Source: Promethearchaeia archaeon (GTDB lineage Archaea; Asgardarchaeota; Lokiarchaeia; Sigyniarchaeales; SOKP01). Taken from it: a stretch of DNA of 32,000 nucleotides. A program made the position numbers and the translations under genes. The DNA is taken from NCBI GenBank assembly GCA_046497275.1, contig JAWOFX010000096.1:23202-55201 (forward strand), written 5' to 3'. How positions within the stretch are numbered: the stretch's first letter is position 1; each line of letters starts with the position of its first letter. The notes beneath the pieces were generated by a model. It had not been told where the DNA came from. It ran no database searches and saw only the letters and a list, made by a program, of their open reading frames with translations. Shown in pieces: positions 5,819 to 20,654 of this stretch.

Positions 5819-6571
5819 ATGGATAAAAATGAAACAGTTCACATAATTATTGATACTAGAGAGAATAAACTCATTAAAATTTTAGAAGAAAGTCATGAGT
5901 TTGTGGAATTAGAAATTAAACAGTTAGATATAGCAGATATCATTGTATCTAAAAATGTAGCTATTGAGAGAAAAGAGGGATCTGACTTTATTGCGTCTAT
6001 AATGGATAATCGACTGTTTGATCAGTTGATTAGATTAAAGGAAACTTATCCAAATCCCGTTCTTATTTTGGAAGGCTTAACTGATGAGATATTTGATAAT
6101 ACAGGTATGAATATCAAATCCATATATGGTGCTCTTGCATTTATATCTTATAAATTAGGAATTGCAGTAATTCCGACTCGAAATTTAGATGATACTGCGA
6201 TAGTTATTGAAAGAATTGCTTACCGGGAGCAAATAAAAGATGAAATGCCTATTTTAAGCCGTTCAGCTCCAAAAAATATGGGAACGTTCGAAAGAAGATG
6301 TTTTATCCTCGAAGGACTTTTAGATATTGGTCCTACAAAAGCAAAACAATTAATTGAACGTTTTGGAACGCCTTTTAGAGTTTTTGAAGCAATAAAGTTT
6401 ACAAAAATTCTTTATACAAGTACAGGAAATCCAAAAGGGATTCAAGGACCTCTTGATACATTAAAAGGATTTGGATGGAAATTTTTAAAGAAGAATAAAC
6501 ACCTAATTTTAGGTAAAGAAAAATCAGATGATAAAAAAATAGAGAAATCTGCGATCGATGATTATATTTAA
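5819..6571 (+). CDS. xpf: Short XPF/ERCC4-domain structure-specific endonuclease with HhH domain
   Basis: IIIDTRE, LDIADII, ERKEGSDFIASI (ERKxxxD), RLFDQL, LILEG; C-terminal HhH GLLDIGPTKAKQLIERFG; no helicase module. Confidence 0.9.
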   Translation: MDKNETVHIIIDTRENKLIKILEESHEFVELEIKQLDIADIIVSKNVAIERKEGSDFIASIMDNRLFDQLIRLKETYPNPVLILEGLTDEIFDNTGMNIKSIYGALAFISYKLGIAVIPTRNLDDTAIVIERIAYREQIKDEMPILSRSAPKNMGTFERRCFILEGLLDIGPTKAKQLIERFGTPFRVFEAIKFTKILYTSTGNPKGIQGPLDTLKGFGWKFLKKNKHLILGKEKSDDKKIEKSAIDDYI

Positions 6572-6784
6572 AAGAAGATAGATCTATTTATAATAACTAA
6601 ACGATAAAATTTGTTGATTGAAAAAAGCAAAAGAAAAAAATTATAAAAAGTTTTTATATCTTCTATATAAAATAATCTAAAATCCATAGAGTAATCATAT
6701 TAAATTATATATCTCCCAATTTTTGAAGTTATAAGTAAAATATTTACTCTTTTTCTTTAAATAGATATATTATATTTTGATAGT

Positions 6785-8836
6785 ATGAGTATTTTTAATT
6801 ATCTTAAAATAGATAAAATTTTTTACCCTGAATGTGGTTGCTCCTTTTCTTTGCGCGAACGACAAATAGAGATAGCAAACTTTTACTGTCCAGAATGTGG
6901 AAAAGATATTAATATTGAGGCTTATTTTAGAAAAAATGAAAGCGAGAATTCAATATTTAGCAATAAAAATTACTTATTGGATGATATTAACTATATATTT
7001 AATTTAAAAGAGAAGAAATTTACAGAAATAAAACATTCAAAAAAATTTTGTGCCAATGCGTCTAATAGAGATTCAAAGTTCTTTCCAAATATATCAGATA
7101 ATAAGAATTTGAATAAATTTGCTTTTAATGGTAAGGAGGATTATGCTAATTACCTAAATAATGAAATCATAAATCATCTTAATGAAAAATACAGTTTAGA
7201 TTCAAAATATGTCCCTACAATATGTGAACTCGTTAAGGAAGGCTATATTCAATTCATTAAGGCTTTTTATGAGAATGGGTTAAAATATTCAGAAATTATA
7301 AGTAAACTTAACCTTAGCCAAAAAAGAGTATATCGAAAGAAATCGATTAAAAATCTAGCTAATGAATTAATACATATAACCCAATGTTTGCGTGAGGTCT
7401 TGGATCTAAAGTTTCATCAAGCACCGAACCCAAATCAATTAATAAATTTAGGTTATAGAGGCTTTGTGGTTTTTTTGCAGAAATATAATTTTAATTATGT
7501 TGATATTGTGAATGAAGCGGGGTTAGAATATAGAAATTGGAAATCAGATTTACTCAATTTTGAAGACATGTTAGAATTAGCAAGCGAAAAAGAAATTATA
7601 TTTCCTTATACTCGTGAAACATTCGAAAAAATGATTAAAAATCGATCTACCTCTCCAAGTCATATTAAATTCAATTGGATTTGTCCGGATCATGGAGTTT
7701 GGAAAACAACTTACAATACTTTGATAAATACTAAATATGGATGCCCTGACTGTTATCGAGAATCATTGAGTCTAAAATATATGGATTGTGTTAAATTGGC
7801 TAAGTCTAAAGGAGCAATATTCGCGATGTCGAATGAAGAATTTGAAACCGCTAAATTTAAAGAAATTTTGGATTCTCAAAATGAAAAGAGAAAACCAAAA
7901 ACAACTTCTAAAATTCCTCTTGTATGGGAATGCAAACAACATGGAAAATGGGAAACAACCTATAATGTATTAAAAAATACTGCTATAGGATGCCCCATTT
8001 GTGCTTTGGAAATTTGGAAGGAAAAGATTTCTATTTCATATGAAGATTATTATAAATTAGGTTTAGTGAGAGATGATTTGAATTGTGTCATAGATGAAGA
8101 TCTGTTTCAAGAGAGGATTTCTTCGACGGATACTCCCCCTAGCTTGGTTCATTTACCATGGAAATGTACTGCTAATCATAATCATGGTATTTGGTTAGCT
8201 CCATATTCTAGAATTAAACGAGGACATGGATGTCCTTACTGTCAAGAGAGAATTAGAGTGATAGGAATTTTGACACACCCAATTTTAGAATATTATTCTA
8301 TTAAATTTTTAAGATTGAAAAATTGTAATGTTAATTACGAAAGAGAAGTAATGGTCAAAGATGGATACCATCCCGATTTATTTATTAGCAGAGACTTAAA
8401 ATTTATCAAAAAAATTGAAAAAAATCAGTATATTATACAATTCCCCGATCATATTAGCGAAATTTCGATTGATTTTACATTTTCTTTAGAGGATAAAATA
8501 ATCCTACAAAAATGTTTTAAGAATTATCAATCTAAGTTTAGATATCTTCTAATAATTCTGTTAAGAGAGAATGAATATGCTTCAAAAGATATTTTTCAAA
8601 ATATAATTGATGTTAATGAAGAAATATTCATGCCCAAACACATTAAAGTTATAAATCTTAAGGATTATAAGGAATTCTTAATGCCCAAATTATTATGTAC
8701 TCCCAGAGAGATAGAGGTACTTAGTAAATTATCAAAAGCTCAAAAGTTAGGGATAGAAGCGATTAATTCAGATAAAAAATTTACTGAACTAATAATGCAA
8801 AGCAAAAAACATACTAAATTACTTAAAAAATTATGA
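6785..8836 (+). CDS. Modular protein: N-terminal Zn ribbon, 2 helical repeats, 3 W-x-C..H..W..Y..G-C-P-x-C Zn modules, C-terminal PD-(D/E)xK-like domain
   Basis: Repeats read directly from the translation: NWICPDHGVWKTTY..GCPDC, VWECKQHGKWETTY..GCPIC, PWKCTANHNHGIWLAPY..GCPYC. C-terminal YEREV..YHPDLFI..EISIDFT resembles a restriction-endonuclease-fold core. The function call is inference. Confidence 0.6.
   Translation: MSIFNYLKIDKIFYPECGCSFSLRERQIEIANFYCPECGKDINIEAYFRKNESENSIFSNKNYLLDDINYIFNLKEKKFTEIKHSKKFCANASNRDSKFFPNISDNKNLNKFAFNGKEDYANYLNNEIINHLNEKYSLDSKYVPTICELVKEGYIQFIKAFYENGLKYSEIISKLNLSQKRVYRKKSIKNLANELIHITQCLREVLDLKFHQAPNPNQLINLGYRGFVVFLQKYNFNYVDIVNEAGLEYRNWKSDLLNFEDMLELASEKEIIFPYTRETFEKMIKNRSTSPSHIKFNWICPDHGVWKTTYNTLINTKYGCPDCYRESLSLKYMDCVKLAKSKGAIFAMSNEEFETAKFKEILDSQNEKRKPKTTSKIPLVWECKQHGKWETTYNVLKNTAIGCPICALEIWKEKISISYEDYYKLGLVRDDLNCVIDEDLFQERISSTDTPPSLVHLPWKCTANHNHGIWLAPYSRIKRGHGCPYCQERIRVIGILTHPILEYYSIKFLRLKNCNVNYEREVMVKDGYHPDLFISRDLKFIKKIEKNQYIIQFPDHISEISIDFTFSLEDKIILQKCFKNYQSKFRYLLIILLRENEYASKDIFQNIIDVNEEIFMPKHIKVINLKDYKEFLMPKLLCTPREIEVLSKLSKAQKLGIEAINSDKKFTELIMQSKKHTKLLKKL
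7553..8245 (+). repeat. Three tandem ~70-80 aa protein modules, each (L/I)x(F/Y)xD helix - F - W-x-C - HG-x-W - Y - GCPxC
   Basis: Residues ~257-324, ~330-407 and ~417-487 of the 683-aa ORF align by eye. Confidence 0.8.
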
Positions 8837-8987: not shown

Positions 8988-10250
8988 TTATGAACAGCTG
9001 GATATTTCTAGTAATTGGCCAGAAATTGGACAAATATTTCTAGCGCCCCCTATAACTTCTTCAATCTTGCTGGTATCCATAAGCTCATCTATAGGTGTAT
9101 TGTCAGTGACTGAGACACCACCGGCATGTTGTTGAACTTCATAGCATATTTCATGAGTGAGTTTTGAAACATAATATTTCCCTTGAGAGGAAACGCTCGC
9201 AACCCATTTCTCTGCATCTTTATTTACTTCATCTGCAAATAACACTTTATCATCATAAATTGTAGCCGTTTGCAAAGCCAAGGATGTAGCAGCGGTACAT
9301 TTACTTAACAATTCAGCAAGACCAAAACCCACACCCTCAAATTTAATAACTTTCTGGCCAAATTGTTCTCTCAAATTAGTATATATTATTCCATAAATTA
9401 ATCCAGCCCAGCAAATTCCTATTCCAGATCCCATGATACCGAGTCGTTCGGGAACCAAGCCTTCAAACAAGCGTACATATCCACCACCATTATCTGCTAA
9501 AATGTATTCCTTAGGAACTTTTACATTATCCATAATAGTATGTGCAATATGAACACGTGGAACTGCGCTAATCCATAATCTATTTGTTTTAACACCCATT
9601 TCAGGAGTTAGAATAGATTGGACCATTGTTTTTCGAGGTTTTTCTGTATCATAAACGCCATAGACGCAAAAATAGTCAGCTTTTGGACCATTAGTTGTAA
9701 AAACTTTTTCTCCATTATATATAACATCTCCATCTTCTGTTTTTGTGCATTTTGTTTTCAAATTTACCGCATCTGAACCTTGGCTAGGTTCTGTTATCCC
9801 AATACAACCCACTTTTTCTCCAGACATCAATCCATCTTGAACTTTACGAATTTCTTCACTTTCACCACCATATTTAAAATAATGAAATGTGGGGTTTCCG
9901 CATAGAATACCACTAGCAAGACGTGCAAGTTCCAATTGAGAGTCTAACATAGAAATATGAGTTGCCAGAAGGATTTCCTTTTTCATTCCATATGGTTCAA
10001 AATCTTTCCATAGGTTTATTCTCTGCATATAACCGTGTTTACCTAATTCAGGAAACAGTTCATATACATCCTTAGATTTATCAATTTTAGGCTCTAGATT
10101 TATACAAAAATCCTGCAAATCTCTGCAATATTCCCTCTCTTCATCATTGAGCATCGGAAAAACATTGTCATTAAATATGTTAAATACATTTTCTAATGAC
10201 ATTTTTTCCAAAATGCTATCCTCGATGATTTTTTCTTGAATATTCTTCAT
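8988..10250 (-). CDS. Acyl-CoA dehydrogenase; C-terminus frameshifted by a 32-bp insertion (restored stop at 8950-8952)
   Basis: GCIGITEPSQGSDA, NGEKVFTTNG, LVPERLG (IVD/LCAD-type catalytic Glu), REQFGQKVIKF, QQHAGGV. Removing the insertion gives the family-like tail GGARNIQLFIIQNALRRYKSIL*. Confidence 0.93.
   Translation of the reverse strand: MKNIQEKIIEDSILEKMSLENVFNIFNDNVFPMLNDEEREYCRDLQDFCINLEPKIDKSKDVYELFPELGKHGYMQRINLWKDFEPYGMKKEILLATHISMLDSQLELARLASGILCGNPTFHYFKYGGESEEIRKVQDGLMSGEKVGCIGITEPSQGSDAVNLKTKCTKTEDGDVIYNGEKVFTTNGPKADYFCVYGVYDTEKPRKTMVQSILTPEMGVKTNRLWISAVPRVHIAHTIMDNVKVPKEYILADNGGGYVRLFEGLVPERLGIMGSGIGICWAGLIYGIIYTNLREQFGQKVIKFEGVGFGLAELLSKCTAATSLALQTATIYDDKVLFADEVNKDAEKWVASVSSQGKYYVSKLTHEICYEVQQHAGGVSVTDNTPIDELMDTSKIEEVIGGARNICPISGQLLEISSCS
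9002..9043. repeat. 10-bp direct repeat ATATTTCTAG (9002-9011 and 9034-9043) flanking a 22-bp insert
   Basis: Exact duplication; insert TAATTGGCCAG AAATTGGACAA consists of two imperfect 11-mers. Confidence 0.9.
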
Positions 10251-10408
10251 TTTAAGTCATCAAATCAAATATTTATTGTTAAAGTAATTTTTAATAATTA
10301 GTTAAAATTTTCATACCAATTAAATATTGAAATTTGAAAAAAACATCAATAGTAAAAGAATAAAAAAATTAATTTTATTATTTTATTAAAGAATTTTTCC
10401 GAATAAAT

Positions 10409-12130
10409 ATGAAAATTATATTAATCACGATTGGGAGTGTATTAGCACTTATTATCATTTTATTATTATTGAATAAATATTACGGAAATCGAGCTATTTA
10501 TAAAACTATTAAAAAATATTTTAAAAGCGAACAAGAAAAAGAAATAATGGTGAAATACAAGGAAATCAGTAAAATCGTTGAAGACACGGAAAAAGAGATG
10601 GAGAAATCCATTCAAAAAAAAGTAAAACTTGTTAAAAATCAATTTAAGAAGGCTGAAAGGAAATTAATTGAAAAAGGAACTATGCAATATTCAGTGTTTT
10701 CATCTAATTTAAGTTCTGCAATGCCCGAATCTGAACAAGAACTTAAACAAGATATGGATGATCTCAAAGGTGCAATTTCTCTTTTAGAATCTATGGATGA
10801 AGCTGCAATAAAAGAGTCGAAACAAGAAGTTGGAATAGGATTAGGAATGTTCTATGATAAAATGTCCACAAGGATTAAAAAAATTATTGAAGAAAAAACT
10901 CTGGACAAGTTTGATTTTATTCCTCTTCCAAGATTGAAATATCATGCATTTCAGGAAATAAAAAACATAAAAGATGAAGATTTTCTACCCATTATACAAG
11001 TTATGAGAGAAACTAATTTATTAGGTGATATTATCGAAATAAATCCTGCATTTCATATATTATTATTTAAGGATAAAAAGTTAGATTTGACTAAAACAGA
11101 AAAAGTTGTACTCACATTCGCTTATGAAGAAGATAATCTTACAAGGAAAAAATTATTAGAACTAACAGAATGGAACAGTGATTATGCAGAAAAAATACTT
11201 AATGGATTATCTGAAAAAGGAGTTCTAGATTTTAATGGCTCAATTATAATTAAAAGTTTTAATCCTCCGGAAGAACGAAAAAAATGGAAAGAACTTTTAA
11301 ACAATATAAAAAAAGAACAAAGGAAAAGAGAGGAAGAAAAATTTCAGAAAGCTTTAATTCGGCGAACTGAATTTAAAGATAAGTTAACGAAGACAGAACT
11401 AATAGCTAAAGCAGAAAAGAATAAAATAACTGGGAAAACAGAAAAAGAAAAAAATACAAAAAGTGAGAAAAAAATCAAATTTGGGAAAAAACCAACAACA
11501 AAAGCACTTCCTGAATTAAAATCTACAATACAGGAAGAAAAAATTAAGAAAATTCAAGATATTAAAGATAAAGATTCTCTGATTGGCGCAATGGAGGCAT
11601 TGGATGAAGAATTAAAAATATCCTCAAAAAAAAGATTGAAAACGGATTCAAGTGAGGATGATCTTAGTGATATCTCATTAGATATAGAAAATTTAAGAGA
11701 AGAAGCGCCAGGTGCAGAAGATATTATCTCAGGACAGATTTTAAATTATGATGAAAAATTTTCCATGATAAATGGTGGATTTGTGCAATATCAAAAGATT
11801 AAAGATTATATTCTTAAGAAAGATGAACGTTTTACTGAGGAAATGCTTAAAAAAATGCTAAATGATTTAGCCAATCTCAAAATGATAAATAAAATAATAA
11901 TCATAGGGGAAGACACATTTTATGCGTTCAATCAAATTGATTTAACTCAAAATCAAAAAGAATTTATTAGATTTTTGATAAATAGAAAACCGATGCAAAA
12001 AGAAAAAATAATTACTGGATTAAAATGGGATGAAGAAAAGGTGTTAAATGTTATGAAATCGCTCCAAAAGAAGAATATTCTCCGTTTTCAAGATGATAAA
12101 ATAATAATACCTGGAGCATTACAAAAATAA
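10409..12130 (+). CDS. Membrane-anchored protein with two tandem EAP30 (ESCRT-II Vps22/Vps36-like) double winged-helix modules
   Basis: N-terminal TM helix (res ~3-21), then coiled coil. Module 1 (res ~142-284): IGLGMFYDKMSTRI...LDLTKTEKVVLTFA...TEWNSDYAEKILNGLSEKGVL. Charged linker. Module 2 (res ~437-570): SGQILNY..INGGFV...IDLTQNQKEF...LKWDEEKVLNVMKSLQKKNIL. Both resemble SNF8/Vps22 as recalled (LGVGDFYYELGVQI..NGGLI..ELNMDHTVVL..LKWETERARQVLEHL). Confidence 0.68.
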   Translation: MKIILITIGSVLALIIILLLLNKYYGNRAIYKTIKKYFKSEQEKEIMVKYKEISKIVEDTEKEMEKSIQKKVKLVKNQFKKAERKLIEKGTMQYSVFSSNLSSAMPESEQELKQDMDDLKGAISLLESMDEAAIKESKQEVGIGLGMFYDKMSTRIKKIIEEKTLDKFDFIPLPRLKYHAFQEIKNIKDEDFLPIIQVMRETNLLGDIIEINPAFHILLFKDKKLDLTKTEKVVLTFAYEEDNLTRKKLLELTEWNSDYAEKILNGLSEKGVLDFNGSIIIKSFNPPEERKKWKELLNNIKKEQRKREEEKFQKALIRRTEFKDKLTKTELIAKAEKNKITGKTEKEKNTKSEKKIKFGKKPTTKALPELKSTIQEEKIKKIQDIKDKDSLIGAMEALDEELKISSKKRLKTDSSEDDLSDISLDIENLREEAPGAEDIISGQILNYDEKFSMINGGFVQYQKIKDYILKKDERFTEEMLKKMLNDLANLKMINKIIIIGEDTFYAFNQIDLTQNQKEFIRFLINRKPMQKEKIITGLKWDEEKVLNVMKSLQKKNILRFQDDKIIIPGALQK

Positions 12131-12161
12131 AAAAACAAATTTAATATTTCTTAAGAATTAA

Positions 12162-13919
12162 CTAAGAATAATTTTCCTTTACATACTCTTTTACTGTTCT
12201 TATTTCATTAAGATAAGTATTCCTATCCCCAAAAATATAAAACCTCACTTGGGGACCTGTTCCGGAAGGGCGAAAATAAAGAGTTGAATTGTTACTCTTC
12301 AATTTATAGATTTCTATATTACCTTCGTTATCATAAAGACCAGTAATTTTATAGTTTTTGCCGGCTATGGTTAATTCTTTACCATCTAATTTTTCAAAAT
12401 TTTCCATAATCTTTAATTTTTCCTCGTCCTCCGCATGAATAGTCTGATTTATCCCTTTAAGAGACCAATCAATAGCATCTTCAATAACATATCCTCTGCT
12501 AATTAGTTCAGTGATTAAGACTAAAGCTGGTACTATGTATTTATCTGCTATTAGGGGTAAATCTGTAGAAAATTCATATCCACCTTTAGTTCCGTTTTTT
12601 GAAGCATTTAAAATATTCAAAGTATGTCCTCCTGACTCTTCCCACATTACAACAATAAACTGAACATTTGTCAATCCATTCCTCTCCATTCTCCTAATTA
12701 TTTCATTTTTAAGAGGTTGAGCTTCTTGAATCTGAATTAATTCTTCATTTTCTCCCTCCATATATAAAATTGCTGAATCAATTTTTGACGGATCGACCTC
12801 AACATCAAATAGGAAATACAATATAATTCCAAGGTGTTTATACCCAACTCCTGTTAAAACATTTAGAAAGCTTGTATGATCTGCTCTTAAATCCGATGGG
12901 ATGGTTCTTATGTTAATAATTTCTTTTTCGAATTCTTTTGCTAAAATATTATGCATTGCTGAATATATTTCATTAGGGATATAGTATGAAAATTCTCCAT
13001 TTTTTTTCACATAAAGAGCAATTCTATCTCTGTCAGCATCAAGCAAAAGTGCTATTTTGGAATTTGAATCATTCATTACATCTTGTAGTTTCTCTTCTTT
13101 AACAATTTCTATAGGATTCGGAGGATTAATTGTTTCTTTTATTAAATGTACTTGAGCACCATAATCTTTAAACAATTTCACGATTCCTTCTGCTTTCCCT
13201 AAATATGGCCATATTACAAGATTTTCTCCATTGAGACTCTTAATATCTATAATTTTTGAAACTAAATCCCTTACATAATCATTATTTTTTTGAATTGCAT
13301 CAATTACTTGTGGTTTAAATTTTTTTTTTAATTTTATATTCTTTAAGTCAAGTGCAATATTTGAAACATCCTTAAAGAGATCTCCTGATATTGGAATCGG
13401 ATAATCGATGTAAAATTTAATTCCATTCCAAGATAAATCATTATGACTTGCAGTTAATACTATTATAAGATTAATATCATCATAGAGAGCAACAGACGCG
13501 GCTCCATAAGGAGATGAAGCTCTTGACCAATCCTTTTTATCTTTTTGATGATAAACTTGATATCCCTCATAAGCAAATATTTTTGAAGAGAAATTAAGAA
13601 GAATATGACTACTTGGACGATCATCTGTTACAATCAACACCTTTAGCTTAGACTCATCTTTCATTTGCTTAAACTTCAAGCTAATTGCTTTAAATACCCG
13701 CAGAAATAAAAATAATTTCCGATTAGTTAGGATGTATTTTGGAGGCTTGGTTGATTCATTAATATTATAGATCTGAATTCTTAACCCCGATGTGGGTGCT
13801 ATAACAGGATCAATTAGATTTTTTTCTTCATCTGTTAATTTAGGTAAATTTATGACTTCAAATTGTTTATTCCTCTGCTCATATTCAATATCTTCTATTT
13901 CAAAATCTATATCGATCAA
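12162..13919 (-). CDS. Alpha-D-phosphohexomutase family (PGM/PMM-like)
   Basis: TSGLR, phosphoserine loop TASHN, metal loop DADRDR, EESGG, phosphate-binding RPSGT; TTG start. Confidence 0.88.
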   Translation of the reverse strand: MIDIDFEIEDIEYEQRNKQFEVINLPKLTDEEKNLIDPVIAPTSGLRIQIYNINESTKPPKYILTNRKLFLFLRVFKAISLKFKQMKDESKLKVLIVTDDRPSSHILLNFSSKIFAYEGYQVYHQKDKKDWSRASSPYGAASVALYDDINLIIVLTASHNDLSWNGIKFYIDYPIPISGDLFKDVSNIALDLKNIKLKKKFKPQVIDAIQKNNDYVRDLVSKIIDIKSLNGENLVIWPYLGKAEGIVKLFKDYGAQVHLIKETINPPNPIEIVKEEKLQDVMNDSNSKIALLLDADRDRIALYVKKNGEFSYYIPNEIYSAMHNILAKEFEKEIINIRTIPSDLRADHTSFLNVLTGVGYKHLGIILYFLFDVEVDPSKIDSAILYMEGENEELIQIQEAQPLKNEIIRRMERNGLTNVQFIVVMWEESGGHTLNILNASKNGTKGGYEFSTDLPLIADKYIVPALVLITELISRGYVIEDAIDWSLKGINQTIHAEDEEKLKIMENFEKLDGKELTIAGKNYKITGLYDNEGNIEIYKLKSNNSTLYFRPSGTGPQVRFYIFGDRNTYLNEIRTVKEYVKENYS

Positions 13920-14019
13920 TTTTTTCCACCAATTATAATTCAGAGATATAAAAAATAGTTCAAAAAGAAATAAAATCTTTCTTGTTCAAGAATAATGATT
14001 TCGGAGATTAAATTTAACT

Positions 14020-14922
14020 TTAAGGGTTTTCGTTTTCAAACTTTTTTTTTTCAATTTTATCAATAGCATCATTTAATATCGCATGGATTTTTTCTCTATA
14101 ATTTTCATTTATCGCGATCATCCCATGAGTAATAATTTCTCTCCCACCTTCAGATAATATCTTTTCACAAAATTCTGGAGTTAGCCGATTTGATAAATCT
14201 TGTTTATTTGCTATCCCAATGACATGTATATCCTTAAAATATTTATCGAGAAGATCTTGGATTATGGTTTTAGTTGAATTTACATTTTCAAAAGTCGAAT
14301 TCGTAACTAACAGAGTAATATCAGTCCCTTCAAGAAGGTTTTTCCATAAACTTCGAAATTGAGATTGCCCGGCAAAATCCCAAAAAATTACGTTTCTATT
14401 TGTTTTAATACCTTCCCCATCATAGGAACTTATATCTGCATTGACTGTTGGGACATATTCAAGATCAATCTCTTTTCCACAAATAAGATGGAGTAGAGTA
14501 GTTTTTCCAACACCTCCAAATCCAATAATGCTTACCTTAATTGAGCCTAAAATAATATTATCTAACTCTTTTTCAAAATCTAAAAAAAGTGAACGGTTTC
14601 CTGCCCAACTCCCATCCTCAATTATGGAGCCGTACTTTTCCAAAAATTTAGCTCTAATAGTGCTTATTTTTGAATTTATAACAGCATCTTCTTCTTCAAG
14701 ATCGGTGCAAACTACAATAATAATGTTATTTATAATCGTATAGTAATATTTGAAATCCTCTGTGGCTGTACTTTTAATATCGGATTGACTAATTTCTTTT
14801 ATAAATCCAGAAAACGCACTTAAAAATCCTGCTAATAAGTCTCGATCGATCTCAGAATCACTATAATTTCTAAATACCAGAGATTTGCCGTCTTTACTGA
14901 GAACATTTACATAATTTATGAT
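14020..14922 (-). CDS. Longin-domain + Rab/Arf-like small GTPase fusion (Asgard type)
   Basis: The ORF track starts at TTG 14643, but the frame is open ~93 codons further upstream: (I)INYVNVLSKDGKSLVFRNY..DRDLLAGFLSAFSGFIKEI..FKYYYTIINNIIIVVCTD, a longin-like pattern. GTPase motifs GFGGVGKTT, YVPTV, WDFAGQ, NKQD. Start codon uncertain (ATC at 14922 or 14925, or ATA at 14919). Confidence 0.85.
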   Translation of the reverse strand: MINYVNVLSKDGKSLVFRNYSDSEIDRDLLAGFLSAFSGFIKEISQSDIKSTATEDFKYYYTIINNIIIVVCTDLEEEDAVINSKISTIRAKFLEKYGSIIEDGSWAGNRSLFLDFEKELDNIILGSIKVSIIGFGGVGKTTLLHLICGKEIDLEYVPTVNADISSYDGEGIKTNRNVIFWDFAGQSQFRSLWKNLLEGTDITLLVTNSTFENVNSTKTIIQDLLDKYFKDIHVIGIANKQDLSNRLTPEFCEKILSEGGREIITHGMIAINENYREKIHAILNDAIDKIEKKKFENENP

Positions 14923-15049
14923 GATATATCCCTTGCCGAATTTCTATTAACTTTATTTAAAATATTGAGATCTATTAAATCTAAAAAATTTTGACTTTAT
15001 ACTTGAATTTAAATTAAGTTTTTTAGATATATTATTTATATTTAATGCA

Positions 15050-15300
15050 TTTTTAAGAGTGCACGTTCTCTGTAACCGCAACACTTTCGTGAATTGGTAT
15101 TGGGTAAAACTACTAATAAACTTCACACATAGGCGGGTAGAGTCTTTTCCAAAAATTTGTCCGGACTCATTTGATACCTTTGTGGTCTAACCTTACTTTT
15201 ATTTAACCTTTCTTTCCTTTTTAATTCTTTTGTGGGGTGTCCGTTTGAGGGGGAAAATTTTATGGGCGGGGTTATGATAAATTTGGTAACCCTTTGCATT
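15050..15300 (-). ncRNA. Predicted omegaRNA/reRNA overlapping the tnpB 3' end
   Basis: TnpB guide RNAs are known to derive from the 3' end of the gene plus the right end. A GAAA-tetraloop hairpin ACCAATTCAC-GAAA-GTGTTGCGGT lies at 15075-15098 on the minus strand. Boundaries are guessed. Confidence 0.4.
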
Positions 15301-17650
15301 GTTTGATCGGTTAGGCGTCGGCGAGGATCGGAAATCAAACATAAGTTATAGGCGATCATTCGTTTGGAAAATAATTTTGGATGACCTTTCCTACCGATAT
15401 TAGCCGCACCGTTGATATCTCCGTGAATGATGTTTCTGTTCCTTGTTCTAAACAATCCATTATGTTTTACTCCATTTTGGGTAAACCTGCGTAATCCAGC
15501 ATATTCACCATTTGGTTTTTTCCCAATTGATTCATCGTCGATATATGAACATTTGCTAGTATACCATTCGGGCGTGTAATCCACTTTAATTCCAAAATAG
15601 ACCGCTTCTTGCTGAATTCTCTCAAACATTTGGTTAAACGGTAGTGAAACGAATAAAACTCTAATTAATTTATTTAATTTTATCTTTCTATTACGTTGAT
15701 TTTGCCAACCTTTATTATAGCCGATTGTAATCGTTCCTACTCCATAGTATAGGCAATAAAACATAAGTTTCTTGGCGATCTTGCTGATAGCGTCCCGCTT
15801 CACTCTGTTATATTTGTCCCATAACTCATCAGTCTTCAATTTGTATAATTCCAATTTGTTTTGCAATCTTCCTACCGAAAAATTGGATATCTGATTAAGG
15901 AATTTACTTTTATCACTATCCCGTGATTTAACATAATCTAAATATTCTATAAACATATCTCTCTTGTCTTGGGGAGTGGAATCCGTGAGAATAATTGTTT
16001 TGATGATGTTAAAAATGCCAGAATAGACCATTCTTCTTTCATTTTCGGCGAACTTCCTAAAATCATCCCAATTTGTGTTTTTCATTGTCCTAAAAAAACG
16101 ACGAGATTTCAAACATTTAATGATAATGTCCCTATTCCCTAAGCCACGTATATCCAATCTTGAAAGAGTAGAAATTTTCCTAAAAATGTAAAGAATCATC
16201 CTTCTCACTTTCTCAAATTCGTCGAGATAGGTGTGAATTCGAGAATTGATAATTGATTCTAATGAAAGTAACCTTCCCGCTTCTTTATTTTTTTCATATC
16301 GCTCTAAAACATCGTTAATTAGATCAATCCTACTTTGAAGTTTAGGAATTGTATGATTCACTCTAAAATTCCATCGCTTTAATGCTGATCCTTTAAATAT
16401 AGGGAATCTCATACCAAAATTATTGAATATAGTAAGGAAATTATTCACTCCGAAGTCTATAGAAATGGCTCTATTAGGGTTTTTCTCATACTTAAGACCA
16501 TATTCTCTGACTCGTTGAGGTTTTGATTTAATATAATGGATGTTAAATGAATAATTTCTCCCGCAAGGAATGATCTCCACAAACCCGCCGTTTTTAAAAA
16601 GCTGTCCCAAAACTTTTGTTCTGACTCGTATTCGGGGGATTAAATGATCGTGTGAGGGCGGCACATACATATAACACGTATATTTTTTATTATTAATGGC
16701 GTTTTTAAGGCTTTTTAGATTTTCTTTATGTTCAAGTTTCTGCTTTGTATAGATTAATTTCCATTTCCCTTGTCGCTCTCCCTTTATTTTTTTACCAATG
16801 TAGCGGGGTAGACCAGGTCGTGATGGTTTTTGTCCGCGTCGGTTTTCGGCAGTTTGCTTCCATTTCCTTAAGTCGTGATAATATTTCTTTATTAATCCTA
16901 AATGACTGATAAAGGTATTACACACGGCTAAAACGATCTGTTGAGCACAAGGAGAATATCCGATATCTTTGTAAGATTCCATAAATTTCATTATCGTTGG
17001 AACAACACTTCCCAAAGCCCTAAATCTGACAAATAATTCTTCTAAAATCTCTATCGCTCGCTCTTTTTTTTCATTAGGATATTTGGATCTTTTTATGGTT
17101 TTATAAAACCTATCATCTATATTTCTACGATAAAGTTCCATTTTCTCGGGATCGTTTGTATTTTGATAAAAATAACATTGCCGCAATAAATATAAAGTAT
17201 TATTCGCGAGTGCACGAGAGCGGTCAGCAAGGCGATCCAATTCATTTAAAGGAAATTTTGATCGAGACATTCGCACTGATTCGGCGGAATAACGCCCTTT
17301 TTCGTCAATCATTGATTCCATTTCTTCAATGCGTTCCCGTTTTATAATGAAAACACTATCATCTCTAAAAATATCTGAATGATTGTCATTATCAGAACAT
17401 CTCCTACGCCCCGAATCGCAAGAAAGTCTTAAATCCCTATTATCCATAGGCTACTAATATTTTTTTATTTTATATGTAGTTGAAAATTTATAATTAAAAA
17501 ATTCGATAAAATCGTCTAGACGCCGCAAAATTTCAAATTTTTTTTCATATTTGTTCTTATTGTAAAAAATAGCCAATTGCGAATGTGTCCCACCCTATCC
17601 AGAGTGTAAAAAATTTCAATTCAAAGATTGTATTCTAATTTGCAACGACG
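15060..17650 (-). mobile_element. Putative non-autonomous tnpB-only IS200/IS605-derived element (ends approximate)
   Basis: tnpB with no tnpA in the window. Visibly GC-richer short segments at ~15060-15120 and ~17510-17650 contrast with the AT-rich host intergenic DNA. Exact ends cannot be defined. Confidence 0.5.
15123..17447 (-). CDS. tnpB: Enlarged TnpB-family RNA-guided endonuclease (IS200/IS605, IS1341-like) with rearranged RuvC
   Basis: N-terminal LDRLADRSRALANNTLYLLRQCYF, AQQIV, RPGLPRY; RuvC-I SIDFGVNN (D331); TITIGYNKGWQ with Gly at the usual Glu position; PEWYTSKCS (E627); RuvC-III HGDINGAANI (D677). True start may be Met43 (ATG at 17321). Confidence 0.9.
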   Translation of the reverse strand: MDNRDLRLSCDSGRRRCSDNDNHSDIFRDDSVFIIKRERIEEMESMIDEKGRYSAESVRMSRSKFPLNELDRLADRSRALANNTLYLLRQCYFYQNTNDPEKMELYRRNIDDRFYKTIKRSKYPNEKKERAIEILEELFVRFRALGSVVPTIMKFMESYKDIGYSPCAQQIVLAVCNTFISHLGLIKKYYHDLRKWKQTAENRRGQKPSRPGLPRYIGKKIKGERQGKWKLIYTKQKLEHKENLKSLKNAINNKKYTCYMYVPPSHDHLIPRIRVRTKVLGQLFKNGGFVEIIPCGRNYSFNIHYIKSKPQRVREYGLKYEKNPNRAISIDFGVNNFLTIFNNFGMRFPIFKGSALKRWNFRVNHTIPKLQSRIDLINDVLERYEKNKEAGRLLSLESIINSRIHTYLDEFEKVRRMILYIFRKISTLSRLDIRGLGNRDIIIKCLKSRRFFRTMKNTNWDDFRKFAENERRMVYSGIFNIIKTIILTDSTPQDKRDMFIEYLDYVKSRDSDKSKFLNQISNFSVGRLQNKLELYKLKTDELWDKYNRVKRDAISKIAKKLMFYCLYYGVGTITIGYNKGWQNQRNRKIKLNKLIRVLFVSLPFNQMFERIQQEAVYFGIKVDYTPEWYTSKCSYIDDESIGKKPNGEYAGLRRFTQNGVKHNGLFRTRNRNIIHGDINGAANIGRKGHPKLFSKRMIAYNLCLISDPRRRLTDQTMQRVTKFIITPPIKFSPSNGHPTKELKRKERLNKSKVRPQRYQMSPDKFLEKTLPAYV

Positions 17651-17652
17651 AG

Positions 17653-17838
17653 ATGATCTTAGACTATTCAGATGTATTAAATTTGAAAGTAAAAGATCTT
17701 AATGGTGAAGCATTTGAAATGTTGGAAAATTACATTTGGGACAATACTACAATACTTAAAGAAGAGTATTATGACTTTCCCATAAAAAAAGCATTTGGTA
17801 TTGTGAAATCTATTTTAGAAGAGTTAATAATTTCTTAA
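17653..17838 (+). CDS. Small acidic hypothetical protein (61 aa), divergent from tnpB
   Basis: ATG start, host-like composition, no overlap with other genes; no family recognised. Confidence 0.4.
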   Translation: MILDYSDVLNLKVKDLNGEAFEMLENYIWDNTTILKEEYYDFPIKKAFGIVKSILEELIIS

Positions 17839-18087
17839 CTTTTTTTTCCTTATTTTGGACTATCCTTTCACATTAATTCCACGTTTCTTTGCCCCTATTC
17901 AAGAAGCCATACATCCATATATGGTTAAAAGATTACACATCAAAGATGAAAAAATGTTATAAGGTAAAGGATATATTCAGTCATAAGGTCAATCCTTCCT
18001 TTCCCGTTTCCAATGGATATGAGTTGTTTATTTTAGATTTTAAACCATTTTAACTTTCTTTTTTCTTATTTTTTCTTATTTTGGACT
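17835..18087. repeat. Imperfect direct repeat TTAACTTT...CTTATTTTGGACT (17835-17861 and 18050-18087)
   Basis: 13-bp exact core CTTATTTTGGACT at 17849-17861 and 18075-18087, plus shared TTAACTTT; ~190 bp between the copies. Confidence 0.7.
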
Positions 18088-18215
18088 TAATTATATGGGG
18101 ATGAAAGAAAATGTTTAATACAAATAGGTTTATATTTAATACAAATAAATTAAGTTTTTTAGATATTCCTATCATTAGGATAAAGCTATTTAGATCAAAA
18201 ATCGGTGTGCTATTC

Positions 18216-18803
18216 TTGACAAATAATGAAGACAAAAATATTAAAGAAGATGCTAATCAAGAATTAAAAGAGAGGTTAGATGGGTTTTCCTCAGTACTAG
18301 AAAAATTCGGAATGGATTTAATTACCAAACTCGGGAAAACGAATTTTAATATTAAAGTTTTAACCGACAAAGTTGAGGATTTAAATAAAGCAACTATAGA
18401 TATTAAAGCACTCATCCCAAAATTGAATAAAATCATTGAAAAGCAAGATACTCTTGAAACAGAAATAGATTTATTAAAATCGTTAGTTTTGAAAAAGTCT
18501 GAATCGAAAAGCAAGGAGAGTGAAGACCAAATTGAACGCGACTCATCCGCAACTGATAAAAAAGAGCTTATTTTGAAAATGATTATTGAATTTAAAGAAG
18601 GAGTGGGAGACCAAGAAGTTCCATCTAATATTATAGAAGATCTTGACGAATTAAAAGATAAGATCTTTGAATATACCGGAGGACATAAAATATTATATGA
18701 AATTTCCCAAATGATTAAACATGTCAAAAAAAAAGAGACGGTTTCTCCAGAATTAAAAGAAATCTTATATCAGAAAGCAACGTATTGGGCTAATAAACTA
18801 TAG
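18216..18803 (+). CDS. Hypothetical coiled-coil protein with C-terminal helical domain
   Basis: Heptad-rich N-half and helical C-half ending YWANKL. Start moved to TTG 18216 (GGTG upstream); the ORF-track extension from 18111 is low-complexity. Confidence 0.7.
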   Translation: MTNNEDKNIKEDANQELKERLDGFSSVLEKFGMDLITKLGKTNFNIKVLTDKVEDLNKATIDIKALIPKLNKIIEKQDTLETEIDLLKSLVLKKSESKSKESEDQIERDSSATDKKELILKMIIEFKEGVGDQEVPSNIIEDLDELKDKIFEYTGGHKILYEISQMIKHVKKKETVSPELKEILYQKATYWANKL

Positions 18804-18834
18804 GGAGAACTAAAAGAAAAAAACTCTTAAAGAC

Positions 18835-19407
18835 TTAAGGTTTCTTCATTTTTGATTCTAAAACCAATTTTGCGATTTTTCTGAACATCACTTTAACATT
18901 CTCGCCTGTTAAGGCAGATGTCTCAAAATAAGGAGCATTCAATTCATCTCCCAAATGTTCCATCATTGGAACTATAATCTTTCTCTCATCTTTTAGATCT
19001 ATTTTATTCCCTACAAGTATGCGGGGAATGCCAGATAATCCATACTTAACTCCGCTATTATACCAGTTCTTAACATTAGAGAAGGAACTACTCCGTGTAA
19101 CATCAAATACCAAAATCATTCCATCAGCACCATTAAAATAAGGACGATGGAGCATATAAAATTGTGGTTGACCAGCAACATCCCACATCATCATATTTAC
19201 TAGTATATCTTCTCCTAAATGATTCACTTCAATTTGTTCTTTTGTGATATTAACTCCGACGGTGGGTAAGTACTTTTTCTCGAATTTATTTGATGAAAAT
19301 TTTGTTAAGAGGCTCGTTTTGCCCACAGCAGGATCCCCAATTATGATAATTTTATATATGTGTTCTGTTTTTCCTTGAAACACAATTCCTTTGTTATTTT
19401 TAGTCAT
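18835..19407 (-). CDS. Rab-like small GTPase
   Basis: G1 GDPAVGKTS, G2 YLPTVG, G3 WDVAGQ, YFNGADG, G4 GNKID, G5 ETSALTG; no C-terminal prenylation cysteines. Confidence 0.93.
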   Translation of the reverse strand: MTKNNKGIVFQGKTEHIYKIIIIGDPAVGKTSLLTKFSSNKFEKKYLPTVGVNITKEQIEVNHLGEDILVNMMMWDVAGQPQFYMLHRPYFNGADGMILVFDVTRSSSFSNVKNWYNSGVKYGLSGIPRILVGNKIDLKDERKIIVPMMEHLGDELNAPYFETSALTGENVKVMFRKIAKLVLESKMKKP

Positions 19408-19539
19408 AATTCAGCCCATTCGATAAAAAATTATTTTGATAATTATTTACTCTATTAAGAATCTTTGATATCTTAATGTATTAAATGTTTTTATATTTTA
19501 CTTATAGTTAACTTATCATAAGTTTAAAAGTATTTTTTT

Positions 19540-20088
19540 TTAAAGGTTAAAAGGAACTGTTTTGATAATTTTAAAGGAGCTATTTTTTCTATTCTCTCTG
19601 CTAATAAAAAATATCTTATCCACGAGGAAAGTAAGTGGGTCCCATTTTTTTTGGAGTTTATTAAGTTTTTTATTAATTTTATACGTGGTAAACTGTCCTA
19701 CACTCAAATGAGGTTGGTAACCACCTCTAAATTGGATAATATCATTGCATTGTGGAACAACTTTTAATAATTCTCTTTGGAGAGAAATGATTTTTTTATT
19801 TGGTTCAGGATCAAGCCATATTGTGTAAGTTTGATATTTATGTCGAAAGTATTTAAATTGCTTTAATACGAGCTCAAAAGGTTCGATTGAGGCACAAACC
19901 TCGCGTATATAGTTTTCAATAGTATCATATTTTTCTTTTGGTGTAAATGGATACAAAAGATTAATATGTGGCATCCATCTCTCGATTTTTCTATCATATT
20001 TCTGTCTGATTTTTTGAATGGGGTCCCATTTTTCACGAGGAGGGATGATAACACATGCAGAAGTTACAACTTTACTCATAAATTTCAT
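19540..20088 (-). CDS. 2H phosphoesterase (2'-5' RNA ligase superfamily)
   Basis: Two H-x-(T/S/N) motifs: WMPHINLLYPF and YQPHLSVGQF. Confidence 0.88.
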   Translation of the reverse strand: MKFMSKVVTSACVIIPPREKWDPIQKIRQKYDRKIERWMPHINLLYPFTPKEKYDTIENYIREVCASIEPFELVLKQFKYFRHKYQTYTIWLDPEPNKKIISLQRELLKVVPQCNDIIQFRGGYQPHLSVGQFTTYKINKKLNKLQKKWDPLTFLVDKIFFISRENRKNSSFKIIKTVPFNL

Positions 20089-20147
20089 ATAAAATAATAT
20101 AGAATAATTAAAAGGTTTTTATATAAGAAGAGTTTATTCTAAAATGT

Positions 20148-20654
20148 ATGAACATCAAGCAAAGACATTTTATCCGTAAGGATGAATTAGAAGAATTAAA
20201 AGATAAATTAGAGAGTATGTATGGTGAATCTTTCTTAAATGAAGTATTTCCGAAAAAAAGCAAGGTAGAGATCATAATAACTGAAGAGGAAGATAAGCTT
20301 TATGCTATCAATGGTAAATTAGCCCTATGGAAGTCTAAAGAAGGGTATATTCCTATTCTCACTTTCTTATTAGATAATAGAGTAGGGTTAAAGACAATTA
20401 TTGTAGATATGGGTGCGGTTCCATATGTGACTTTGAATCAAGCGGATATTATGCGTCCTGGAATAACCAAAATTGATCCTAATATTAAGAATGGAGATAT
20501 TGTACGAATTGCAGATGAGAATAATAATAGGACATTAGCAGTCGGAAAAGCCATGTTTGATGCCAATGAAATGGAGCAAAAGGAGAAAGGAAAAGTTGTT
20601 AAAAATTTACATACTATCAATGATGATATGTGGGAGTTCGCAGAAAGTTTCTAA
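20148..20654 (+). CDS. DUF1947 + PUA domain RNA-binding protein (MCT-1/Tma20-like)
   Basis: IIVDMGAVPYV..ADIMRPGI..IKNGDIVRI..LAVGKA..KGKVVKNLHTINDDMW. Confidence 0.92.
   Translation: MNIKQRHFIRKDELEELKDKLESMYGESFLNEVFPKKSKVEIIITEEEDKLYAINGKLALWKSKEGYIPILTFLLDNRVGLKTIIVDMGAVPYVTLNQADIMRPGITKIDPNIKNGDIVRIADENNNRTLAVGKAMFDANEMEQKEKGKVVKNLHTINDDMWEFAESF

Follow-up and report, generated by a model that had tools for sequence, protein, structure and literature searches.

The stretch of DNA analysed here (32,000 nucleotides of a Promethearchaeia archaeon of the Lokiarchaeia, assembly GCA_046497275.1, contig JAWOFX010000096.1, positions 23,202 to 55,201; hereafter the window) carries on its forward strand an open reading frame (ORF) at 10409-12130 that starts with ATG and translates into 573 amino acids plus the stop, in agreement with an earlier note on this DNA. 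Our analysis indicates that its product (P0001, here called the double-Vps22-like protein) is very probably a protein that crosses the membrane once, occurs in one order of Lokiarchaeia and carries, in the large part behind its anchor, two paralogous modules of Vps22/EAP30 type that arose by internal duplication from a diverged Vps22 paralogue. [quoted passage not shown] Both the targeting of ESCRT-II to membranes and the origin of the Vps22/Vps36 pair are open questions, and the family described here bears on them. The parts of the gene referred to below are the following, each with the evidence for it (TM, transmembrane; AF2, AlphaFold2; pLDDT, predicted local distance difference test; pI, isoelectric point).

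10409-12130, plus strand: whole gene (ORF list, translation, family, metatranscriptome contigs)
10412-10474, plus strand: N-terminal TM helix, residues 2-22 (hydropathy, relatives, AF2 helix)
10475-10528, plus strand: basic juxtamembrane stretch, residues 23-40 (K/R content, pI)
10529-10816, plus strand: helical, probably coiled-coil stalk, residues 41-136 (AF2 helices)
10751-10789, plus strand: repeated helix motif, copy 1, residues 115-127 (pattern count, alignment consensus)
10829-11266, plus strand: module 1, residues 141-286 (AF2, Foldseek, VIA, hhalign, Pfam in relative P0038)
11267-11434, plus strand: long basic helix after module 1, residues 287-342 (AF2, pI, invariant residues)
11435-11710, plus strand: low-confidence K/E-rich linker, residues 343-434 (pLDDT, alignment consensus)
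11474-11512, plus strand: conserved linker motif, residues 356-368 (consensus of 36 sequences)
11567-11605, plus strand: repeated helix motif, copy 2, residues 387-399 (pattern count, consensus)
11711-12127, plus strand: module 2, residues 435-573 (AF2, VIA, PDB profile search, hhalign)

AF2, run on the whole protein with an alignment of 36 full-length family members (A1), returned two confident blocks, at residues 143-285 (pLDDT about 90) and 436-570 (pLDDT 81-93), with one and the same order of elements: a helix, a strand, two helices, a hairpin, three helices and a second hairpin. When module 1 was folded separately (A2, residues 88-300), pLDDT was 83.5 overall and about 90 over the module. 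As modelled, both modules possess the leading helix and the two tandem winged helices (WH1 and WH2) by which the EAP30 fold is recognized. A Foldseek search of the PDB with the whole model gave human SNF8 and yeast Vps22 as the three best matches (E 5e-6 to 7e-5) and, with module 1 alone, SNF8/Vps22 chains came first (E 3e-5 to 8e-4) and Vps36 chains stood at ranks 4-5. The VIA search with module 1, which was exhaustive over 48,161 chains and independent of Foldseek, placed Vps22 on top (1w7p_A, Z 11.1, root-mean-square deviation (rmsd) 3.5, 141 residues aligned), followed by SNF8 (3cuq_A, Z 11.0, 146 aligned) and then by single winged helices of MarR type at Z 9.3 over 58 residues. For module 2, the same tool found SNF8 (2zme_A, Z 13.9, rmsd 4.5 Å, 144 aligned, model range 430-573), and the rows below it were single winged helices with Z of about 10-11 over 65-82 residues. 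Generic helix-turn-helix (HTH) regulators in place of EAP30, the outcome that had been named as contrary to the earlier reading, are not what headed the searches: Vps22/SNF8 and then Vps36 were the top structural matches, and the profile comparisons link to Vps22 as well.

With regard to sequence, the strings quoted in the earlier note are all present, namely GIGLGMFYDK (residues 142-151), LDLTKTEKVVL (225-235) and EWNSDYAEKILNGL (254-267) in module 1, and GQILNYDEKFSMINGG (442-457) and LKWDEEKVLNVMKSL (538-552) in module 2. For P0001 alone, Pfam EAP30 yielded no match even at E 10; the single Pfam match was to TrmB (E 0.0045, on WH2 of module 2), and phmmer against the PDB reached SNF8 at E 1. 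Since single-sequence searches leave P0001 without an EAP30 match, profiles and structures were required. Across the family, 2 of the 36 members matched Pfam EAP30 at E <=0.1, and one of the two (P0038) rose above the gathering score, at 27.4 versus 26.8 bits; its match spans HMM positions 31-217 of 219 and takes in module 1 and the upstream helices. The HMMER check with PF04157 that had been suggested gave no match for the protein itself and one above the cut-off for a relative. A profile of module 2 searched against the PDB had SNF8 as its top match (E 0.021). Compared by hhalign with an alignment of canonical Lokiarchaeial Vps22 (A4, with PF04157 in every member), module 1 scored 84.7% (E 6.6e-6) and module 2 94.4% (E 9e-8), whereas the Vps25 family used as control (PF05871), which has tandem winged helices like the modules but no leading helix, stayed below 1% probability for both. 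In a feature search of the ESM Atlas, which we take as a lead only, EAP30 clusters came directly behind the cluster that contains the protein (score 0.87). We conclude that both blocks are modules of Vps22/EAP30 type and not generic HTH domains; the claim that both halves are EAP30 is supported by the top Foldseek and VIA matches, by the hhalign link to Vps22 and not to Vps25 and, for module 1, by the Pfam match of P0038.

The two modules resemble each other more than they resemble canonical Vps22. By hhalign, module 1 matched module 2 at 97.5% (E 7e-12) over 113 columns across both winged helices, more strongly than either module matched canonical Vps22, and an L-INS-i alignment of the cores was nearly free of gaps. 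We built a tree from 16 module-1 cores, 16 module-2 cores, 8 Lokiarchaeial Vps22 and 30 Vps22 of other Asgard families, a sample without Vps36, the OB-EAP30 paralogue or eukaryotes. Each module was monophyletic (99/97 and 95/90), and the two together were set apart from the 38 canonical Asgard Vps22 by a branch with 99/99 support; nothing in this tree, which contains no Vps36, marks either module as an orthologue of Vps36. On these sequences, the duplication appears to have taken place within the double-Vps22 family and before its radiation, provided that the root falls outside the module clade and that long-branch attraction is not at work. A duplication specific to this lineage would make the protein an analogue of the Vps22/Vps36 split and not its ancestor; the earlier idea of an analogy by internal duplication is supported by the comparison of the modules and the tree.

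A short amphipathic motif, D-x3-L-x2-[AGS]-[ILMV]-x2-[LIM]-[EDQ], occurs 50 times in the 36 family members, compared with 0.2 occurrences expected from shuffles, and sits without exception before module 1 or module 2. Copy 1, of the pattern D-x3-L-x2-A-[IM]-x2-L-[ED], lies about 15 residues before module 1 with D115, L119 and L126 invariant, and copy 2 (residues 387-399, consensus KDKD-x-L-x-GAMEALD) about 35 residues before module 2. Its presence before each module, established by pattern count and not by profile alignment, points to a duplicated unit that extended beyond the winged helices. An extension of the repeat upstream was also sought by hhalign of residues 88-300 against 388-573, and still only the two winged helices aligned (113 columns). 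With the consensus of the MIT-interacting motif MIM1 the repeated motif has the hydrophobic spacing alone in common, with A and D/E at the basic positions, and we claim no likeness.

Residues 2-22 are hydrophobic (mean Kyte-Doolittle value 3.27 over 19 residues) and helical in the AF2 model, and a TM helix is common to most full-length relatives. Residues 1-40 hold seven K/R, all except K2 beyond the TM helix, and no D/E (pI 10.2). By the positive-inside rule, the K/R flank behind the helix makes it probable that this is a signal anchor whose N-terminus faces outwards and that the remainder of the protein is cytoplasmic. Two clades of the family start directly after the position of the TM helix. 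In both of the loci inspected the upstream sequence is broken by in-frame stops, and their lack of an anchor is therefore not due to a mis-called start; the anchor that had been predicted is accordingly a property of the window protein and most relatives, and not of these two clades. The stalk is modelled as helices at residues 40-77, 81-100 and 109-136. A Pfam scan of residues 24-140 across 35 members gave no family at E 0.0005, and none of the Vps28, Vps23-core and CdvA steadiness-box models appeared in it; nor did the stalk match the N-terminal part of canonical Vps22. The GLUE/split-PH domain by which Vps36 binds membranes and ubiquitin is absent before module 1, where AF2 gives helices only and Pfam no family at the cut-off just given. 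The spacer between the modules measures 148 amino acids (287-434), close to the 150 or so estimated before. It begins with the long helix 287-342 (pI 10.0; R290 and W293 invariant), and pLDDT falls below 50 at residues 341-393 and 405-434. According to the alignment consensus, conservation in the linker 343-434 is limited to two short motifs; the motif at 356-368 has the consensus IKF-x2-KP-x-VK-x-LP (36 sequences), with P362 kept in at least 90%.

The family is conserved, and confined to one order of Lokiarchaeia. A word-indexed search collected 63 clusters at 90% identity, all annotated as hypothetical, and the named ones came without exception from metagenome-assembled genomes of Lokiarchaeota/Promethearchaeota, apart from two labelled Hermod- and Thorarchaeota. 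An exhaustive phmmer search of 1.84 billion representatives at 50% identity found 83 proteins, including relatives of 550-770 amino acids at 24-32% identity, some of which align over their full length. Mean column identity in A1 is 51%, with two conserved blocks and a variable spacer between them. The distribution survey that had been proposed, carried out on 400 genomes of the phylum, showed that the family is limited to the window's own order of Lokiarchaeia: strong profile matches were found in 55 of 134 genomes of family f1, 12 of 14 of f3 and all four of f4, and outside the order the profile reached only short canonical EAP30 proteins (E 1e-6 to 1e-10). The 241-residue canonical Vps22 of other genomes was matched at E 1e-6 to 1e-8. 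Canonical EAP30, for its part, was present in 190 of 201 sampled genomes of the phylum. Several closed genomes carry the double-Vps22-like gene. It is single-copy in the genome of the window, where no paralogue was found, and tandem copies occur in some others (L006:4186-5931 and 6001-7683, of 581 and 560 amino acids; likewise in G175 and G176).

As far as the literature searched shows, the architecture is undescribed, and we regard it as a novel arrangement of domains within a known family. The Asgard ESCRT-II variants listed in PMC10936438 and PMC9192718 comprise Vps22 carrying a steadiness box, N-terminally extended Vps25, and a double-winged-helix protein that has both a steadiness box and Zn ribbons. 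A TM-anchored tandem EAP30 protein appears neither in the main texts of those papers nor in the MK-D1 ESCRT preprint (10.1101/2025.11.01.685982) or a 2026 structural-clustering preprint. We found no earlier description in the Asgard ESCRT literature searched, although Makarova et al. 2024 (PMC10936438) may list it in a supplementary table.

The genome (3.85 Mb in 188 contigs, 98.9% complete) has ESCRT genes of the usual kind elsewhere. Contig C39 (L002 6504-10902) carries a cluster of a NIP7-like PUA protein, a Vps22-like protein, a Vps25-like protein, Vps4 (with MIT and Vps4_C domains) and Snf7, and a second Snf7 is on C41. The canonical Vps22-like gene (L002:7221-7901; 226-241 amino acids) has PF04157, and the Vps25-like gene (L002:7914-8822, minus strand), the sole Vps25 of the genome, encodes 303 amino acids with a long N-terminal coiled coil. 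The cluster fits the earlier characterization of canonical Asgard Vps22 as a soluble, single-module protein encoded in ESCRT clusters. A Pfam scan revealed no ESCRT gene among the 20 largest ORFs of the window, and there is no Vps25, Snf7 or EAP30 gene on its contig; the earlier note had stated that the window has no vps25, ESCRT-III or vps4 gene. No ESCRT gene was called beside the double-Vps22-like gene in the loci of three relatives either.

Canonical Asgard Vps22 (asCOG cog.002769, 'EAP30/Vps22 family') is homologous to the modules by profile-profile comparison and by the family HMM, and coexists with the double protein in this genome. It is soluble, has a single module, keeps 62-100% identity across Lokiarchaeia and adjoins Vps25/Vps4/Snf7, whereas the double protein occurs in one order only, evolves faster and forms its own clade. 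Eukaryotic Vps22/SNF8/EAP30 (PF04157; 2zme_A, 3cuq_A, 1u5t_A, 1w7p_A) has in common with each module the helix plus two winged helices, and also signature positions, for instance a GG turn ahead of WH1 and a Trp that opens the last helix of WH2. The window protein differs from it in having two modules per chain at about 16% identity and no ESCRT gene cluster, and in place of the basic N-terminal helix of Vps22/SNF8 it has the TM anchor and a helical stalk of about 120 residues. Vps36/EAP45, which pairs with Vps22 and brings ESCRT-II to membranes, contains an EAP30-type double winged helix like each module; it contacts the membrane by a GLUE/PH domain, whereas the window protein has neither and carries a TM helix instead. 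The MK-D1 protein called VPS36 (10.1101/2025.11.01.685982) combines an OB fold with a double winged helix, and the window protein lacks the OB fold.

Tentatively, and as a reading slightly more apt to fail than to hold, we propose that the protein is a membrane-resident ESCRT-II-like platform. The TM helix and the basic juxtamembrane stretch would secure it to the membrane's inner face, and the stalk and the long flexible linker would place the two modules at different distances from it. Hatano et al. 2022 (PMC9192718) propose that Vps22 homodimers substitute for Vps36 in Asgard ESCRT-II; the two linked modules could take the role of such a homodimer, or that of eukaryotic Vps22 plus Vps36. 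Each module would offer a winged-helix surface to a partner such as Vps25 or ESCRT-III, and the conserved short motifs before the modules and in the linker might be further docking sites. Remodelling machinery would then reach the membrane with no need for ESCRT-I, ubiquitin or a lipid-binding domain or, which is equally possible, would be held in check there. The genome encodes potential partners in Vps22, Vps25, Vps4 and the two Snf7 genes. A complex model of module 2 (A3) with the winged-helix part of Vps25 (A5, residues 115-303) scored 0.00 against a mark of 0.32 in a run without controls, which is evidence neither for nor against binding.

Several of our results weigh against the platform. 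The whole-protein model reached a predicted template modelling score of only 0.36, and the packing of the modules against each other is without confidence. Identity to Vps22 is only about 16% and, considering also that P0001 has no Pfam EAP30 match, the surfaces that bind partners may have changed. The gene is unlinked to ESCRT genes, alone on a contig other than C39 and C41. Genus g12 of family f1 (54 genomes) mostly lacks it yet retains canonical Vps22, which indicates that the double protein is dispensable for core ESCRT function. Finally, two clades of the family are truly without a TM helix, and thus the anchor is not essential to whatever the modules do.

A bolder form of the proposal, which we regard as unlikely, is that the protein constitutes a complete single-chain, permanently membrane-bound equivalent of ESCRT-II, in which the modules pair like Vps22 and Vps36 and each directly recruits Vps25 or a subunit of ESCRT-III, the amphipathic motif before each module and the proline motif of the linker docking further ESCRT factors. 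If this were true, the order would own a second route to nucleate ESCRT-III on the cell membrane, independent of ESCRT-I and ubiquitin, for instance for the formation of vesicles or protrusions, and possibly regulated by the roadblock-Arf-like GTPase encoded nearby. The family as a whole can be seen as a natural experiment, an in-chain Vps22-like duplication that is mostly fastened by a TM helix and whose anchorless clades are built-in controls. Should ESCRT-III be recruited, targeting independent of ESCRT-I and of lipid-binding domains would be shown; should it not, the EAP30 module would have been reused outside ESCRT already in archaea.

Somewhat doubtful, in our judgement, is the explanation that the EAP30-type modules were co-opted as general protein-binding modules, in a membrane scaffold for a partner other than ESCRT-III, for example the neighbouring small-GTPase system; the candidates would be the roadblock-fused Arf-like GTPase, a conserved protein of 230 amino acids (orf230) and a divergent phosphoglucomutase (PGM)-like protein. 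The gene neighbourhood speaks for it. Within the window's own family, where identity in the double protein is 39-44%, the order acyl-CoA dehydrogenase-like gene, double-Vps22-like gene, PGM-like gene, Arf-like GTPase (about 292 amino acids, N-terminally extended), orf230 (200-230 amino acids), Ras-like GTPase, LigT and PUA is kept. Of three loci from family f3 (L007-L009; 24-29% identity), two still have the dehydrogenase next to the double gene, and all three have the PGM-like/Arf-like/orf230 trio within 3-6 kb, though inverted or relocated. The double gene was never beside ESCRT genes in the loci examined. On the other hand, loci L010 and L011 have none of these neighbours, and the neighbours are on the opposite strand and hence form no operon with it. 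The acyl-CoA dehydrogenase-like gene upstream (8988-10250, minus strand) is divergent and the PGM-like gene downstream (12162-13919, minus strand) convergent, which leaves the double-Vps22-like gene as a separate transcription unit. The linkage could be due to residual synteny among related genomes, and the conservation of neighbours may be either this or a functional hint.

Far less plausible is a membrane-tethered nucleic-acid-binding protein, for example a chromosome tether, or a regulator that works at the membrane or is set free from it, with its four winged helices binding DNA or RNA. It would explain why single winged helices have weak, sub-cut-off Pfam matches to TrmB, MarR, Phage_rep_O and DnaD_N and structural matches to MarR/Fur-type regulators at Z 9-10. 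These, however, extend over a single winged helix (56-70 residues), whereas the matches to Vps22 take in the entire module (141-146) at higher Z, and the profile-profile links lead to Vps22. Family-wide, the modules are also acidic, with a median pI of about 5, and D/E residues abound in the conserved third helix of WH2, which argues against DNA binding. A KITE-like tandem winged-helix protein (ScpB, MukE or Nse1/Nse3 type) working with an SMC-kleisin complex at the membrane is scarcely credible, for although ScpB, MukE and Nse1/Nse3 chains are among the weaker Foldseek matches (E 0.004-0.3), these are two to four orders of magnitude worse in E than Vps22 and have rmsd of 9-12 Å, there is no link at the level of sequence, and the Pfam scan of the 20 largest ORFs detected no SMC or kleisin gene in the window.

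Contigs from salt-lake metatranscriptomes (two studies) match the double-Vps22-like gene without mismatch at 10559-10659, 11152-11294, 11328-11598 and 11641-11906, with very uneven depth along the locus. Such contigs tell neither strand nor level, DNA may be present in RNA libraries and the uncovered parts carry no meaning; the matches do no more than hint at transcription of the gene in situ.

With 26-35% GC the window is AT-rich, and its other large ORFs include those for UvrD, DeoC, a subtilase, ERCC4, a Zn-module protein, two small GTPases, TnpB, LigT, a PUA protein, MFS transporters and acyltransferases. The block 8988-20654 is conserved across one Lokiarchaeial family and partly kept, in rearranged form, in a second (L004-L009, L012). 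The PGM-like protein (585 amino acids) weakly matches phosphoglucomutase domains I and II (E 1e-9 and 2e-4) and may not be a working PGM; its identity is 57-64% across its own family and 40-43% in f3, and its gene is always near that of the Arf-like GTPase. The latter (14020-14925, minus strand) has a listed TTG start at 14643 that gives 207 amino acids, and its frame is open to about 14943. The 90 residues upstream of this start are conserved with relatives of 292-294 amino acids and look roadblock/longin-like by eye, and there is no ATG, GTG or TTG at the expected start position. Between this gene and that of the 230-residue protein (18111-18803) lies a TnpB-like gene (15123-17447, minus strand; 774 amino acids, OrfB_IS605 plus a Cas12f-like TNB domain). 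Because the two genes adjoin directly, in divergent orientation, in the relatives (L004-L006, L012), the TnpB-like gene is probably an insertion specific to the genome of the window. One metatranscriptome contig, from run X2, lacks 32 bases at 9001-9034, in the 3'-terminal part of the acyl-CoA dehydrogenase-like gene, and forms with and without them both seem to exist in nature.

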